Positions 5,469 through 11,196 of a stretch of 64,000 nucleotides of DNA are shown here, piece by piece. The notes beneath the pieces were generated by a model. The model was not told the DNA's origin. It ran no database searches and saw only the letters and a program-made list of their open reading frames with translations. The DNA lies in assembly GCA_963796055.1 (NCBI GenBank), contig CAWCKH010000004.1, positions 768,001 through 832,000 on the forward strand. Reading direction: 5' to 3'. The stretch's first letter is position 1. Each line of letters opens with the position of its first letter. The position numbers and the translations under genes were made by a program. The DNA comes from an uncultured delta proteobacterium (GTDB taxonomy: Bacteria; Myxococcota; Myxococcia; Myxococcales; Myxococcaceae).

Positions 5469-5525
5469 CGCCACCGCGGGGCGGCAGGGAAGATCCGCCC
5501 TCCGCGACCGACTCTCCCTGGGGAC

Positions 5526-6143
5526 ATGAGACCGGACCTCGCACTCCACACGGATGCCTTGACCGTCGTTCGAGCACGGTGGCACCGTCACACCATTCCG
5601 GCGCCGTCGAAGTCCCGCAGTCCAACGACAGTGGATCCCACCTTGCGGGCGGCCGTCGTCGCGCTCCGGCCCGTCCTGCTCGTCCTGGCGCGGCGGATGT
5701 GTGCGTCCGAGGCAGATGCCGCCGACGTGGTGCACGACGCCCTGGAGAGCGCGCTGCAGGCGGGCGACCGGCTGAAGGCCGTGGAAAATCTACAGGCCTG
5801 GCTGGTGACCATCCTGCACCGACGGATGATCGACCTGTTCCGCAAGCGTGAGCGCGAGCAGCTGGGCGATCCGCCCGAGGCGCCGGCGACGACGCAGGAG
5901 ATGCCGGCGGTGGACGCGCCGCGGTGGATGGAGATCGACGGCGCGCAGCTCCGGGCGGCGGTGGAGCGGCTTGAGCCCGAGTTCCGCGAGGTGTTCACCC
6001 TGCACGCCTTCGAGCGCCGCTCGTACCGGGACATCGCCGCCGCGCTCGACATTCCACAGAACACGGTCGGAACGCGCCTTCTCCGGGCGCGCCGGAAGCT
6101 CCGGGTGCTGCTGCTGGGCGGCCCGGGGGAGGTGGGGACATGA
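5526..6143 (+). CDS. ECF RNA polymerase sigma factor (sigma-70 group 4)
   Basis: Region 2 DAADVVHDAL...AWLVTILHRRMID and region 4 SYRDIAAALDIPQNTVGTRLLRAR. The true start may be GTG at 5631. Confidence 0.9.
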   Translation: MRPDLALHTDALTVVRARWHRHTIPAPSKSRSPTTVDPTLRAAVVALRPVLLVLARRMCASEADAADVVHDALESALQAGDRLKAVENLQAWLVTILHRRMIDLFRKREREQLGDPPEAPATTQEMPAVDAPRWMEIDGAQLRAAVERLEPEFREVFTLHAFERRSYRDIAAALDIPQNTVGTRLLRARRKLRVLLLGGPGEVGT

Positions 6144-9031
6144 CGCCCGAGGACCACAGCGGGGGCCCCGTGCACTGCGACCAGCTGGGGCCGTTCGTGG
6201 ACGGCGAGCTGGACGCGCAGGAGGCGGTGGCGTTCCGCCGGCACCTCCTGGTGTGCGCTCGGTGCCAGCAGGAAATGCACGGGCTGATGCAGCTGTCCGC
6301 CCTGGCCGAGCAGGCGCGGGAGCAGCGTCCGGTGGCGCAGCCCGACCTCGCGCCGGTTCTGGTGGCCGCGGCGGACCGGCGCGCCCGACCGCGCCGCGCG
6401 GCATGGGTGGGCGTGGTGGGCGCGGTGGCGCTTGCGGCGGCGGTGGTGCTGGCGCTCCGGGTCAACGCCTCCCGATCCGATCTCCCCACCCTGCTCGCCT
6501 CTCTCGATGCACGCCGGACCTCGGGGTGGCCGAGCTATGCCGGGCCCCGCGAGTACCGCCCGTACGTGGTCCAGCGTGGGACCGCTGCCTCCGCGCCCCT
6601 CAAGGGGCTGGCCCGGCTCGAGGAGGAGGGCAACTGGCAGGCGCTCGGGACGGCCGCGCTGGTACGGGGCGAGTACGCGCAAGCGCTGAGCTACCTCCAG
6701 CGCGCGCCGCGGAACGTCGCCGCGCTCAACGACCTCGGCCTCGCGCTGATGGACAGCGGAAAGCTCGAGGCGGCGCTCGAGGCCTACGACCAGGCGCGAG
6801 AGCTGGACCCGACCTTCGCGCCGGTGGAGTTCAATCGCGCTCTGGCGCTGGAGCGGCTGGGGCTGCCGCGCGCCGGGCTCGACACGATTCGCGAGGCGAG
6901 CCTTCGCGCGAAAGGGGGCTGGAAGGACGAGGCGGTCCGGATCGCATCCTCCCTGCAGTCCACGGTGGATGCGCGGACAGCCGAGTCCGCGCGGGTGGAG
7001 CAGGCCAGGGAGGCGATGCTCGAGGGACGGATGCCCGAGCCGACGCTGGTCCGGGCCGTCCCGGGGATCTTCCGTTCCCAGTTTTACGTCGCGCTGGCGC
7101 TCGCCCCGGATCGGGCCGCCGTGGAACAGCTCCTTCCCCTGGCCCGGGAGCTGGACGGGAGCTCCGGAACCGGGCGCCTCCAGCGCTGGGTGGCGGACAC
7201 CGCCGCCAGGGCCTCTTCCCGGCGCGCGCAGCTTGCCGTGCGTCTGCGGCCGCTCGTCACCCGCTCCACGCTCGAGCAGCGGCAGCCGCTCGCGGCCGAG
7301 GCCCGCGCCGCCGGGCAGGAGGACCAGCTGCTCTTCGTCCTCTCCCGCGATTTCTTCTCCCGGGAGGAGAACCCGGCGTACGCCGAGCTGGTGCAGCGCC
7401 TGCACGACCCTTACTGGGACGTGCGCCTGGTGGAGTACCACGCCTGGGTGGAGCGGAAGAGCGGGCGGCTGAGCGCGTCGGAGCGGTTCGCCCGGAGCGT
7501 GATCGACGGCCCGTGTCGTGACCCCACGCTCTCCGCGGTCTGCGCCGACACCGCGCTGGGGCTCGCCCTCACCTACGCCCATGCCGGCCGCCCAGCCGAT
7601 GCGCAGCGGGCCTTCGAGACCCTCCGCGGCCTCGCGGTGCGCGCCCCGCATCCACGGAGGGACTACGGTGTCTTGCTCCTCGCCGGCGCGAACAGCGCGG
7701 ATGCCGACCGGGTGGGGCTGGCCCGCGGCGAGTTCGACGAGGCCGCCCATCTGCCCAGCGAGACCTGCGAAGAAGCCCAGTACGGCCACATCTCGCTCGC
7801 TCAGGCGTACCTTCGCCGCGGAGATGCGGTGAGCACCCGGGCGGTGCTCGAGGCGGCCCCGCGCTGCGAGGAGGGGAACCGCCTGGAGCAAGCGGAGGTG
7901 CGGACCGATCTGGCGGTCCTCACCACCACGTCCCAGGACCGGGCGGCTGCCGTCGAGCGGATCCGGAAGGCCTCGGCGGCAGCCACGACGCCGGTCGACC
8001 GGCTGGTGCTGGACGCGCTCCGGCTGATGCTCGACGCAGAGGACGGTCGGCCGGACACGCGGGCGCGTCTTGCCGAGCTCCAGCGCGGGTCGAGGGACGT
8101 CGCCGGCGCGGAGGACCAGGTGGCGCGGGCCGGGCGGACCGTGGCGCTCCAGCTGATCCGCGAGTCCCGGTACCAGGATGCGCTCGAGGTCGCCGCGACG
8201 ATGCTCGACACCGCCGCCCCGGACCGCTGCGCCCTGGCGGTCGTGGCCGATGCTCGGCGGGTGGGGCTGGTGTGGACCACCCCGGACAGCGGCGTCCACG
8301 GCCAGGTCCGCCTCCGTTCGGACCCGGGGGCTCCTGGGGGCGATCCCACCTGCGCCGCCGTCACCGTCCTCGCCCCCACGGGGCTGCTCGATCTCGCTCG
8401 CTGGCTCCCCGCCGACCAGGCCTGGAGCCTCCGGGTGGGGCCGTCCCGGCCGGAGGGTCCGATGCGGTTCCAGGATCGGCTCCTGGTGCGCGGGGCGCTG
8501 GCCCCCGCGGACCTCGACCTGCCCCCGCTGAGCCGGGAGAGTGCCGTCCGCGCGGGTTGGAAGGTCGTGGAGGGGGCCGACGCCACTCCGTCGCGGGTGC
8601 TGGAGCAGCTGGAGAGCGCCGACCTGGTCGACTTCGAGGTGCACGGGCTGGTGGACGCCTCGGCTCCGGACGGGGCCGTCCTCGTGCTCAGTCCGGATTC
8701 GCAGGGCAACTATGCGATCTCGGCGACGGACATCCGGCAGCTGCGGCTCGCGCGCGGACCAGTGGTTCTCCTCGGGGCCTGCCGCTCCGCGACCGGCTCG
8801 CACTACAGGGATGTCACGTGGACCCTGCCCCAGGCCTTTGTTCGCGCCGGGGCTCGCGCCGTGTACGCCTCCGTGGCAGAGTTGCCCGACGATCGCGTCG
8901 GCGACTTCCTCGCCGGCGTCGCCCGGCGGCTGGAACGGGGGGTTGCACCGAGCGTGGCGCTCCGCGACGAGCGGGTCGAGTGGTTGCGGCGGGGCGAGGG
9001 CTGGGCACGGGACGTCGTGCTGTTCGACTAG
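6140..9031 (+). CDS. Anti-sigma zinc finger (zf-HC2) - TM - TPR - CHAT (caspase-like) domain protein
   Basis: N-terminal DGEL...HLLVCARC (HxxxCxxC). One TM helix (WVGVVGAVALAAAVVLAL). TPR motifs (ALNDLGLAL, FNRALALERLG). C-terminal CHAT-type His (FEVHGL) and Cys (VLLGACRS) motifs, followed by LPQAFVRAGARAV. ATGA overlap with the sigma gene. Confidence 0.85.
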   Translation: MTPEDHSGGPVHCDQLGPFVDGELDAQEAVAFRRHLLVCARCQQEMHGLMQLSALAEQAREQRPVAQPDLAPVLVAAADRRARPRRAAWVGVVGAVALAAAVVLALRVNASRSDLPTLLASLDARRTSGWPSYAGPREYRPYVVQRGTAASAPLKGLARLEEEGNWQALGTAALVRGEYAQALSYLQRAPRNVAALNDLGLALMDSGKLEAALEAYDQARELDPTFAPVEFNRALALERLGLPRAGLDTIREASLRAKGGWKDEAVRIASSLQSTVDARTAESARVEQAREAMLEGRMPEPTLVRAVPGIFRSQFYVALALAPDRAAVEQLLPLARELDGSSGTGRLQRWVADTAARASSRRAQLAVRLRPLVTRSTLEQRQPLAAEARAAGQEDQLLFVLSRDFFSREENPAYAELVQRLHDPYWDVRLVEYHAWVERKSGRLSASERFARSVIDGPCRDPTLSAVCADTALGLALTYAHAGRPADAQRAFETLRGLAVRAPHPRRDYGVLLLAGANSADADRVGLARGEFDEAAHLPSETCEEAQYGHISLAQAYLRRGDAVSTRAVLEAAPRCEEGNRLEQAEVRTDLAVLTTTSQDRAAAVERIRKASAAATTPVDRLVLDALRLMLDAEDGRPDTRARLAELQRGSRDVAGAEDQVARAGRTVALQLIRESRYQDALEVAATMLDTAAPDRCALAVVADARRVGLVWTTPDSGVHGQVRLRSDPGAPGGDPTCAAVTVLAPTGLLDLARWLPADQAWSLRVGPSRPEGPMRFQDRLLVRGALAPADLDLPPLSRESAVRAGWKVVEGADATPSRVLEQLESADLVDFEVHGLVDASAPDGAVLVLSPDSQGNYAISATDIRQLRLARGPVVLLGACRSATGSHYRDVTWTLPQAFVRAGARAVYASVAELPDDRVGDFLAGVARRLERGVAPSVALRDERVEWLRRGEGWARDVVLFD

Positions 9032-9041
9032 GGGGAAGCCG

Positions 9042-9826
9042 ATGAGAACGCATCGCTGGATCTTCGCAGTCCCGGTGGTCTGCGCGCTGACGGCCTGCCA
9101 GCACTGGGACTGGCATCAGCCGCCGCGGGGCGTGCCGGAGCAAGACGACTGCAAGCAGTACTCGGTGAAGGAGTCGATCTCGTTCTACGAGCAGTTCCTT
9201 CCGCCGCGCGGCTACTACCAGGTCTACGCCCTCGCGGAGCCGCCCGACGAGACGACGGAACCAACAAGGCTGCCCTACTCCTTCATCGTCTTCCGGGTCC
9301 GGGATGCGCGCTTCCCCGATCGGAAGGACCCGGTCGTCGAGCGCATCATCGGCCCCGTTCGCACCAAGGAGGAGTGGACGGACCTGTTCTCGGTCTTCCG
9401 CCGCTACGCCTCGTCCCCCCCGCCGGGTACTACTGCTGGCAGAACGACTGCCGGGGGAAGTACAGCCCGGCAGGTGATCCGGATCCCCGCGATCCCTACC
9501 CGCCGGAGATCCCCGACCACGCGGGGATCACGGTGCCCAGCGGACTCGGGACCACCCCCGTTCCACAAGGTGCCTATGGCCTTCGCGGTGGTCCAGCGCG
9601 GAGTCAGGGGACCGGAGGATCCGGTTTCGAGCCCGGGACCGGGGGAGCCGGATGCAACTTCGTCCCCCGCGACAAGACCGTGCTCACCGCCGAGCTTCTC
9701 GAGAAGCTCCGGGCGAGCGCCAGCCGGGTGGGCCAGGCGCTGGAGGACGTCCCGGAGGTGCCCGGTTGGCAGAAGCCTCCGCCGGTGCCTGAAGACAAGT
9801 CTGCGCAGCCGCCTGGAAGCAAGTGA
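9042..9826 (+). pseudogene. Predicted lipoprotein, Pro/Gly-rich and Cys-containing, split by a frameshift at the C7 run 9415-9421 (pseudogene or sequencing error)
   Basis: ATG 9042 gives MRTHRWIFAVPVVCALTAC (lipobox). Coding-like codon usage shifts after tcgtcccccccgccggg into the frame of ORF 9374-9826 (GYYCWQNDCRGKYSP...PPGSK*). Confidence 0.65.
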
Positions 9827-10772
9827 GTCGCGCCACGGGCTCGCCGCGCTGGCGCTCGCGGGGGCGCTCGTTCTCCTGGGCTGCACTCCTCGCCCGTGGC
9901 CCGGGGAGCGAAGGGGTCGGCTTCCCGATCTCGCTCCCCCGGCGCTGATCGCCCGGGAGCCATCCTCGGGCCACGCAGGTCTGCTCGCGGTCACCTCCGG
10001 AGAGGGGCGGCCGCAGCGCTGGACGCGGGCGGGCGCGTGGAGTCGCGGGTCGACGAGGGGAATCGCCGCGCGGATCCAGGTGACCCGACCGGCGGTGGTC
10101 GGGGAGGAGCACTCCCTCGTCGAGGTGGAGGCGCAGCTCGGCAGCGTCGCACGCCACGCCGTGGAGATCGGGATCCGGACCTCCCGCCTGGAGTACGGCG
10201 ACTCCGATCCGCACCTCTTCGTCTTCGCCTGGGTCGCCGGGCGCCGGACCTGCTACGACCGATGCGGCTGGCAGGGGGTGCCCGCCGGCGCTCGCCCGGG
10301 CGAGGACCTCGCCGGACGGATCGGGACGGAGGTCACGCTGGGCCTCGTGCTGCACGAGGGCGCGTGGTGGGCATGGATGGACTCGGAGTGGCTGGGGGCC
10401 TTTCCGCTCGACGTCTGGAACGGCGCCTTCTCCGAAGCGGATGGGCTCCAGTGGTTCGGCGAGGTATTTGCTCCCGACGCCAGGCCTCGCTCGGAGATGG
10501 GCACCGGCCTCGCTGCCACCGTACCGGGCGCGGCGACGCTCCGCGGACTGTGTCACGTGCCGTGGGATCGCTGGGCCTGCGTCGAGGAGGAGCGAACGCA
10601 GCTGCGTGCTGACGCGCCGTCGCGCTATGGCGCGGCGCTCTGGGACGACGGGACTCTGACCTACGGCGGCCCGCAGAAGCCGCCGGCGGTCACACCGCGT
10701 CCACCACCTTCGTCAGCCAGCGCAGGAACGCCTCCGGCGACAGGAAGGTCAGCGCCATCTCGCCCACGTTGA
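9823..10772 (+). CDS. Neprosin-family (glutamic prolyl endopeptidase-like) exported lipoprotein; start codon uncertain
   Basis: Signal-like LAALALAGALVLLGC. Neprosin-like motifs HSLVEV, AVEIG, DPHLFVFAW, CYDRCGW, WLGAFP, QWFGEV, EMGTG and a terminal YGGP. The GTG at 9823 (overlapping the upstream TGA) is one base out of frame with the domain. Confidence 0.75.
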
Positions 10773-11196
10773 TGCGGGTCGCCCCGCCGAGCGTCGCCGG
10801 AATGTTGGGCTGGACCGGAACGCCGTCGACCAGCGTGCCGTTGCGGCTGGCGGCGTCCACCACGTTCCAGCGGGCAATCTGCGTCGGGTCGGGGGTGAAG
10901 TAGGCGTGGAAGCGAGACACGCTGGCGTGGGGGAAGACCAGGTCGTTGTGCTCGGCGCGGCCGACGGTCACCCCGGCGCCGAACGGGTTCGCCCGGCCCT
11001 GGACCTTCTTCACCAGGAACACCACCGGGTTCTCGCGCGAGGGCGCGTGCTCGGGCGGCCTGGTCACCCAGTGCGCATCCGACAGCTCGCCTTCCCAGAC
11101 GACGAGCGGCGTCTCCAGCGCGCCCTGGAGGCCACCCTCGTCATCCACCAGACGGCGGACCCAGTCGGTGAGTGGGGCGCTGGAGGGAAGTTCCAT
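10690..11196 (-). CDS. FHA domain protein
   Basis: FHA signature VGRAEHNDL...SVSRFHA...SRNGT. Start taken as ATG 11196 (MELPSS). Confidence 0.88.
   Translation of the reverse strand: MELPSSAPLTDWVRRLVDDEGGLQGALETPLVVWEGELSDAHWVTRPPEHAPSRENPVVFLVKKVQGRANPFGAGVTVGRAEHNDLVFPHASVSRFHAYFTPDPTQIARWNVVDAASRNGTLVDGVPVQPNIPATLGGATRINVGEMALTFLSPEAFLRWLTKVVDAV

Follow-up and report, generated by a model that had tools for sequence, protein, structure and literature searches.

Four co-oriented genes on the plus strand of the window, by which we mean the whole 64,000-nt stretch of DNA analysed here, form a cassette. By homology, genes 1 and 2 are an ECF sigma factor and a full-length homologue of the Myxococcus xanthus anti-sigma factor DdvA; genes 3 and 4 are lipoproteins, the second with a neprosin-like peptidase domain. 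Tree and identity comparisons indicate that the outer domain of the anti-sigma factor, the lipoprotein and the neprosin-like peptidase move together, as a single unit, among related soil bacteria. A sequence-only reading of this DNA had taken the module to be uncharacterised. This does not hold for the first two genes, which have DdvA/DdvS as a known relative, but allelic exchange of a fixed four-gene cassette was absent from print as far as found, the accessible parts of the published DdvA work included.

A DdvA-like sigma and anti-sigma pair

The ECF sigma factor (5526..6143, plus strand, 205 aa from ATG) was recognised by Pfam Sigma70_r2 and r4_2 and by TIGR02937, and was 74-90% identical among same-genus loci. 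An alternative start is GTG 5631. The gene lies directly upstream of the anti-sigma ORF (6140-9031, 963 aa), overlapping its start by 4 nt (Pfam, NCBIfam). The conserved part of the anti-sigma gene (6140..6457, plus strand) encodes a cytoplasmic zinc domain, a basic tail and a single TM helix. The zinc domain matched zf-HC2 at residues 14-43 (Pfam, E 3e-7) and the N-terminal DdvA structure 8RLZ (E 5e-7), and its CHCC site C13/H35/C39/C42 aligns with C6/H28/C32/C35 of DdvA. Residues 1-62 were 80-91% identical within the genus. Hydropathy revealed one hydrophobic helix, residues 88-106, after RRARPRR (KD 2.5; next best 1.3), and a single-TM topology with the large domain outside the membrane is predicted.

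The remaining, variable part of the gene (6458..9031, plus strand) encodes the periplasmic linker, scaffold, TPR and CHAT regions. The CHAT domain was found at residues 808-950 (Pfam, E 6e-18), and TPRs were also detected. Its dyad, His835 (FEVHG, codon 8642-8644) and Cys881 (GACR, codon 8780-8782), was invariant in 29/29 aligned homologues, down to 25% identity. The protein matched DdvA 8ROT over residues 12-962 (phmmer, E about 4e-41), and a model of the periplasmic part (pLDDT 84) matched 8RW5/8ROT in Foldseek (E 4e-34, TM 0.68-0.75). The zinc finger, the single TM helix and the TPR-CHAT region with a His/Cys dyad, all called earlier from the letters alone, were thereby confirmed.

As in DdvS/DdvA, an ECF sigma gene is followed by a CHCC-ZASD/TM/scaffold/TPR/CHAT anti-sigma factor of ~970-990 aa, collinear throughout (PMC11506125, PMC6061681). 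Both systems have the His-Cys dyad and RseP available, an RseP gene having been found in this genome, and in both loci a small gene and a peptidase follow. The two differ in sequence, with about 25% identity in structural alignment, and in their promoter-like motifs (GAAG-n16-CGAC here, GTAA-n16-CGT in the DdvA system). The downstream genes here encode lipoproteins, and the peptidase is neprosin-like, whereas that of DdvA is C25. For DdvA, the accessible text describes neither allelic block exchange, seen here, nor any function of the small gene, such as is proposed here. Craspase Csx29 and separase share the TPR-CHAT fold (Foldseek E about 1e-7), but they are cytoplasmic, gated by RNA or securin, and act on a separate substrate, and their matches were far weaker than that of DdvA.

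The ZASD-TM-TPR-CHAT design of DdvA has a cryo-EM structure, and its RseP dependence was shown (PMC11506125). For DdvA only, it was shown that the zinc domain sequesters the sigma factor and that RseP cleaves once the periplasmic part is gone (PMC11506125). The proposal of the sequence-only reading that a periplasmic CHAT domain cleaves its own chain and releases the sigma factor fits this architecture and mechanism, but it is not new, since autoproteolysis in trans is a published hypothesis for DdvA (PMC11506125). The DdvA dyad is in a resting state and lacks a three-helix motif, and no autoproteolysis of DdvA was observed (PMC11506125). Such an incomplete active site would also suit a CHAT domain acting as a binding scaffold rather than as the site-1 protease, with another periplasmic enzyme, possibly gene 4, cutting first. 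Peptidases, exported or other, do adjoin several loci (the neprosin-like one in this locus, M24 in L082, L098 and L112, C25 in L083), but many DdvA-like loci have no neighbouring peptidase, and the invariance of the dyad argues against a mere scaffold. We regard this explanation as very unlikely.

No CBASS or CRISPR genes were seen by inspection of the genes called in C4:722-840 kb, and the 98.5% complete genome gave no match to a SMODS-family CBASS cyclase or to Cas1; the earlier impression that no cas genes lie nearby was correct. Within that scope, the locus lacks the flanking, sigma-controlled CBASS or CRISPR genes of a ddvA defence-island orthologue. DdvA-like pairs without CRISPR/CBASS are already published: Table S7 of the DdvA study carries 117 'No flanking' CBASS/CRISPR comments in a sheet of 149 rows (PMC11506125).

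An ECF-type promoter-like motif, GGGAAGAT-N14-CGAC(T), is located at 5487..5514 (plus strand), 11 nt before the sigma ATG. Both boxes were invariant and the spacer variable in 11/11 aligned upstream regions. With a matrix built from the sites of 20 relatives, it was the second-best site of the genome (29.3 bits). The same motif precedes an orphan ECF sigma factor in 4/5 relatives, and that sigma factor may be the actual reader of the motif. No defence genes were among those pointed to by the genome-wide matches. A possible sigmaA-like promoter, TTGACC-18 nt-CACCGT (5559..5588, plus strand), lies within the 5' portion of the sigma ORF in its long form; its TTGACC box was invariant in 11/11 regions, and the second box differs in some.

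Two lipoprotein genes downstream

Gene 3 (9042..9826, plus strand) encodes a lipoprotein of ~260 aa when intact, delimited from the separate genes of relatives. In the assembly, 9042-10772 is a single open frame of 576 aa, but its codon bias changes twice, around 9420 and around 9840. One base of gene 3 is missing at 9421/9422, where two ~93%-identical contigs from one study carry an extra G, and the close relative P0021 has an intact 260-aa gene 3. The missing base is probably an assembly error; alternatively, gene 3 may be genuinely broken in this strain. A genuine gene 3-gene 4 fusion was rejected, as relatives keep two separate lipoprotein genes, and so was a programmed frameshift, the relative frame differing among relatives (+1, -1, 0). 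A second frameshift at the gene 4 start was likewise discarded, because the short-read contigs agree with the junction, two of them crossing it without gap or mismatch.

Gene 3 had no Pfam or NCBIfam match and belongs to no known family. The model of its relative in L002 (pLDDT 60) shows a 3-strand sheet, a helix, a Cys pair and a Pro-rich segment. Searches for similar folds with the gene 3 model turned up nothing clear (lowest Foldseek E 0.67; highest VIA Z 4.4), and the ESM Atlas returned unnamed clusters only (best score 0.88). Some Pro positions are nearly invariant, and a PxxPxxP segment is conserved. Complex prediction for the L002 periplasmic domain with its own gene 3 product scored 0.00, the fold of the partner being uncertain.

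Gene 4 (9813..10772, plus strand) encodes a lipoprotein in which the neprosin-like peptidase domain of the sequence-only reading was verified (Pfam Neprosin, a glutamic peptidase family, E 1.5e-12; profile against neprosin structures 7ZU8 and 7ZVB, E 2e-20). Since the junction is confirmed, the gene has no ATG, GTG or TTG start ahead of the lipobox, and its start is probably CTG 9813. Gene 4 shares catalytic-domain homology with neprosin and keeps both catalytic Glu residues (PMC9343461), the counterparts of neprosin E188 and E297, with codons at 10164 and 10461; they were invariant in 8/8 aligned gene 4 sequences. It differs from neprosin in being a bacterial lipoprotein, with no match to the activation pro-domain, and in carrying Glu at Q173 and losing W175, a position that is variable. 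Both Q173 and W175 are essential in neprosin (PMC9343461), and Pro specificity of gene 4 is therefore only putative. The 3' end of gene 4 is overlapped by a convergent FHA gene (10690..11196, minus strand; Pfam FHA).

Block exchange in the genus and partners beyond it

Sigma factor, anti-sigma factor, lipoprotein and neprosin-like peptidase were kept in 15/15 complete same-genus loci, counted as distinct loci reaching past gene 4. The four-gene module called before stands, in a fixed order and with the downstream genes co-occurring with the sigma-CHAT pair, although the assembly itself shows genes 3 and 4 as one frame. All periplasmic parts sorted into six types (at least six versions). Between types, identity was 22-43% for the TPR part, 17-31% for gene 3 and 29-45% for neprosin, compared with 85-95% (HK), 87-96% (RR) and 80-97% (FHA) in the conserved flanks.

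In 13 loci, the periplasmic, CHAT and neprosin trees were mutually compatible (AU p 0.10-0.90) and rejected the backbone tree (p <= 2e-6). The backbone, and the right flank on its own, rejected the cassette trees. This flank, which borders the exchanged block, is the conserved FHA gene; it was 82-91% identical within the genus, and its tree follows the backbone. Against the nearest relative, L007, identity falls inside the TM helix, which marks the breakpoint. HK was 95% and TPR 29% identical, and fourfold sites were 70-81% identical in the flanks and 24-58% in the cassette. Another exported TPR-CHAT protein and a gliding TPR protein in the L007 genome were 84% and 94% identical, and these controls rejected generally fast evolution of exported TPR-CHAT proteins. 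Because the types are exchanged as a block with the outer part of the anti-sigma factor, the lipoprotein is likely its matched trigger partner. Diverged alleles cannot recombine internally, however, so linkage alone predicts congruent trees.

In a second genus (large-genome Myxococcaceae), a downstream lipoprotein was present in 20/20 loci. It came in two types that paralleled those of the TPR part, and one exchange was clear; this comparison omits four rows (sigma of L177; flanks of L168, L169 and L175). Elsewhere, 54 usable DdvA-like loci were read by eye. A co-oriented gene of 117-255 aa lay behind 41, a shorter ORF behind 6 and none behind 7. Pro clusters, defined as 4 or more Pro in 8 residues, occurred in 26/27 gene-3 proteins and 28/40 outside partners, against 7/86 and 10/82 in controls. 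The ddvA-type small proteins (L083, L109) had no signal peptide as called. With signal peptides removed, similarity between gene 3 and other-genus partners was weak (hhalign 11%, score 26; shuffle maximum 14.6), in a stepwise chain with 11% between gene 3 and group a, 18% between groups a and c, and 92% between c and the ddvA type. An earlier 91% hhalign match to outside partners came largely from signal peptides and was dropped. All gene 3 sequences against five outside partners gave no hhalign match, and the direct comparison with the ddvA-type small proteins was negative, distant gene 3 relatives being under-sampled. Of 60 stretches from outside this genus, none yielded a neprosin-like gene (0/60), which means that it is not a general part of DdvA-like loci.

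The periplasmic domain could instead sense foreign proteins of phage, prey or competitors, its diversity being the product of an arms race; outputs or linked passengers would then be the role of genes 3 and 4. Foreign-protein sensing has been put forward as the signal model of DdvA (PMC11506125), linkage would account for the tree congruence, and neprosin is confined to one genus in the sample. Yet the small Pro-rich gene recurs directly behind those 41 DdvA-like genes, whose genomic settings differ, and its type goes with that of the TPR part in two genera; neither the SMODS and Cas1 searches of the genome nor the motif matches led to defence genes. We therefore consider foreign sensing unlikely, if less so than the other alternatives.

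A co-encoded partner as candidate signal

The reading we favour, with even confidence for and against, is a DdvA-family switch whose TPR-CHAT part recognises the co-encoded lipoprotein or its Pro-rich piece in an allele-matched, agr-like manner, with a small autoregulated regulon. Gene 3 would bind the periplasmic domain. Specificity would come from the variable sheet domain of gene 3, acting through the variable TPRs, and its PxxPxxP segment would contact the better-conserved CHAT core. Gene 4 might trim or free the Pro-rich segment. Once activated, CHAT would cleave the linker in trans, RseP cleavage would release the sigma factor, and the latter would transcribe its own operon, the orphan ECF sigma factor and a Ser/Thr kinase. 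The ligand role of gene 3 is inferred from co-occurrence, co-typing and block exchange, which lend indirect support to the earlier suggestion that the downstream proteins supply or process a ligand. Delivery by outer membrane exchange is not claimed, TraA not being established because the genome had only one weak Myxo_Cys_RPT match.

Gene 3 could also be an inhibitor or guarded bait, a securin-like lock on the CHAT site; the switch would fire when this lock is lost, cleaved or mislocalised. Such a lock would require the same allele matching, and the nearly invariant Pro positions could act as a pseudo-substrate. However, purified DdvA-DdvS is already in the resting state (PMC11506125), and deletion of MXAN_7287-7284 with DdvA expressed left the regulon off, the small gene possibly lying outside the deletion (PMC6061681). 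A lock therefore seems improbable, and ligand recognition is retained as the preferred reading.

The layout resembles Staphylococcus agr and Bacillus ComQXP, in which processing enzyme, signal precursor and sensor part co-vary between conserved flanks (PMC3673130, PMC4408185); as in agr, positive autoregulation is likely and the cytoplasmic output conserved (PMC3673130, PMC4408185). There is no homology, and the analogy is one of function only: the receptor here is an anti-sigma factor with a protease domain, and the candidate signal a folded lipoprotein. Sensor, lipoprotein and peptidase genes, in their putative roles, co-vary in a pherotype-like pattern, and the layout suggests self/non-self or envelope-surveillance signalling. 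More tentatively, and on balance doubtfully, DdvA-family anti-sigma factors in general may be polymorphic receptors for a co-encoded, allele-matched Pro-rich lipoprotein. On that view the small gene behind them would be the missing signal, and myxobacteria would owe to exchangeable cassettes a pherotype-like self/non-self system whose reader is a periplasmic caspase-fold protease, with neprosin-like processing in this genus.

The signal that inactivates DdvA is the stated open question of the DdvA papers (PMC11506125, PMC6061681), and any test of CHAT self-cleavage depends on it. With matched and mismatched natural receptor-lipoprotein pairs, now available in two genera, partners can be swapped directly as a test. 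Should the partner prove to be the ligand, the cassette would represent kin- or self-signalling built around a caspase-like protease of the periplasm, and a bacterial neprosin-like enzyme would have gained a setting.

The operon and its published core

Gene 1 (5526-6143) encodes an ECF sigma factor, and gene 2 (6140-9031) a 963-aa protein with zf-HC2, TPR and CHAT domains, a single TM helix at residues 88-106 and a His835/Cys881 dyad, bearing out the fusion proposed in the sequence-only reading. The host genome comprises 5.53 Mb in 7 contigs. DdvA, the anti-sigma factor of Myxococcus xanthus, aligned to gene 2 residues 12-962 (E 3.7e-41), and the predicted model (pLDDT 84) matched the DdvA structures 8RW5/8ROT at E 4e-34. 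Set beside the dyad, a non-catalytic CHAT domain is quite improbable.

The core of the finding is already known, because the same anti-sigma design in DdvA, experimental cleavage of truncated DdvA by RseP, a proposal of CHAT autoproteolysis in trans and, in the accessible part of Table S7, numerous DdvA-like pairs with neither CBASS nor CRISPR have been published (PMC11506125). The same paper states that the DdvA signal is unknown and names the gene after ddvA merely 'a protein of unknown function'; a term search of its main text and two supplementary files found neither 'lipoprotein' nor 'neprosin'. The sequence-only reading was aware of no characterisation of the four-gene module, and a literature search covering few subscription journals turned up no account of this form, of the family of partner genes or of exchanged cassettes. 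RseP is encoded in the genome, in which SMODS and Cas1 had no match.

The window assembly reads 9042-10772 as one frame, where relatives encode two lipoproteins. The lipoprotein and neprosin-like parts of the predicted four genes were recovered, separate in relatives and in a single frame in this assembly. Gene 3 lacks a single base at 9421/9422. Two contigs of close relatives, both belonging to a single study, have an additional G there, and the 260-aa relative P0021 is an intact counterpart. No same-strain contig bridging 9421/9422 was found; two contigs confirm the gene 3/gene 4 junction. An assembly error is more likely than a true mutation because of frame breaks against the comparison genome G010 (differences flagged in 10 of 194 orthologue pairs, clear internal breaks in 4-5) and the scarcity of long G/C runs, those of 8 bases being about four times as frequent in 300 kb of G010.

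Gene 4, the sole neprosin match in the genome, keeps both catalytic Glu residues; relative to neprosin as described in the accessible part of PMC9343461, Q173 is replaced by Glu, and W175 and the pro-domain are absent. At several loci gene 4 has no ATG/GTG/TTG start. Its frame has GTA overlapping the gene 3 TAG stop at L002:7981, L006:10817 and L007:10637, and CTG at window 9813 and L004:7896, hinting at non-canonical initiation that may be coupled to gene 3.

A cassette exchanged within the genus

Two locus sets (12 and 25) gave, after removal of duplicates, 15 distinct loci extending past gene 4, the window included. The lipoprotein and neprosin-like genes accompany the sigma/anti-sigma pair at all 15, with shared flanks on either side. 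Sigma, zinc domain and flanking genes were 71-97% identical among loci; between types, identity was 22-43% for the TPR region, 17-31% for gene 3 and 29-45% for gene 4. The 26 anti-sigma sequences formed six types at a 60% cut.

Trees were tested on 13 loci, leaving out L012 (frameshifts) and L059 (flanks missing). The periplasmic, CHAT and neprosin trees were mutually compatible and all rejected the backbone tree; conversely, the cassette trees were rejected by the backbone and by the right-hand FHA gene alone. Type D was spread over two backbone clades and type A over three. In L007, the window's nearest backbone relative, the kinase was 95% identical vs 29% for the TPRs. Fourfold-site identity between the two fell from 70-81% to 24-58%. 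The drop begins within the TM helix. Taken together, these patterns point to old alleles relocated by recombination, beyond mere fast change. As controls from the same genome, a second exported TPR-CHAT protein was 84% identical and a gliding TPR protein 94%. Against G010, 194 of 237 genes had a DNA-level match (median 91%, first percentile 72%), a selection biased to conserved genes.

Linkage alone can explain the congruence of the cassette trees. A periplasmic domain sensing a foreign signal, with genes 3 and 4 as passengers, is possible, if rather unlikely.

From 13581 to 44000 the window holds a cluster of exported and TPR proteins, including a cytochrome c/beta-propeller protein, Cys-rich GCGC proteins, and FHA and TPR gliding-like genes.

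Partner genes beyond the genus

A class-wide tally over 301 genomes, the unpublished G119 included, found DdvA-like proteins in 113; none of the conclusions depends on G119. Among 60 stretches from other genera, none carried a neprosin-like gene around the DdvA-like match. In 54, the sequence following a complete DdvA-like gene could be read; scored by eye, 41 had a co-oriented gene of 117-255 aa, six a shorter, mostly Pro-rich ORF (followed in two by an M24 peptidase lipoprotein) and seven no partner gene. Pro clusters were enriched in partner proteins relative to controls (40 of 41 outside partners scored). Several outside partners share homology with one another and with the ddvA-type small protein (hhalign probability 92-94%); the possible link of gene 3 to them was weak.

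Behind some DdvA-like loci, at L098:466-648, L112 (~3880-3700, minus strand) and L082, comes a Pro-motif ORF of 60 aa and after it a lipoprotein of the M24 peptidase type; in L098 the unit DPPPEENN is repeated. The pair resembles a peptide precursor and a peptidase placed where the partner gene would otherwise lie. In one 8 Mb genome (G028, L069-L076), at least nine genes are DdvA-like, and their neighbours differ.

A second genus has a paralogous site where the lipoprotein was present at 20/20 loci, its two types tracking the TPR types. Between L159 and L163/L174, identity was 93-94% in the flank, 88-91% in sigma, 52-54% in the TPRs and 24-25% in the partner. For 16 of the 20 loci, periplasmic and partner data rejected the backbone tree (AU p <= 2e-6; 5000 replicates, fewer than the program advises). 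The species are kin, so this evidence amounts to one swap.

Promoter-like motif and a candidate signalling route

The motif GGGAAGAT-N14-CGAC lies upstream of sigma in 11/11 aligned loci. At its 5' end the sigma ORF has an extension of 35 codons (5526-5630) that is open in 11/11 loci; the DNA-level conservation of this extension is promoter-like, and two sigma starts are possible. A matrix built from the sites of 20 relatives gave two strong matches in the genome, the own operon and an orphan ECF sigma; weaker ones include a Ser/Thr kinase. The orphan-sigma site recurred in 4/5 relatives and the kinase site in 1/5. The orphan sigma (G000:C4:728787-729453, outside the window) has no adjoining anti-sigma and the best motif match of the genome upstream. 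The 907-aa kinase (G000:C4:834341-837122, minus strand, just beyond the window) has a weaker copy upstream, with an exact copy in G006. Tandem repeat units (VRAAAAKVRVKGSSG in one translated frame) lie behind a response-regulator gene at G000:C4 ~730800-731100, outside the window.

We give about an even chance to an allele-matched ligand model, whose steps are all inferred beyond the gene content and its exchange. The gene 3 lipoprotein, perhaps after trimming by the neprosin-like enzyme, would engage the TPR-CHAT domain; the engaged CHAT would cut the linker, RseP would then free sigma, and the operon would amplify itself. That the partner lipoprotein instead inhibits is distinctly unlikely. 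In layout, the cassette parallels the agr hypervariable region (PMC3673130) and the ComQXP polymorphism (PMC4408185), as far as the accessible parts of both papers describe them.
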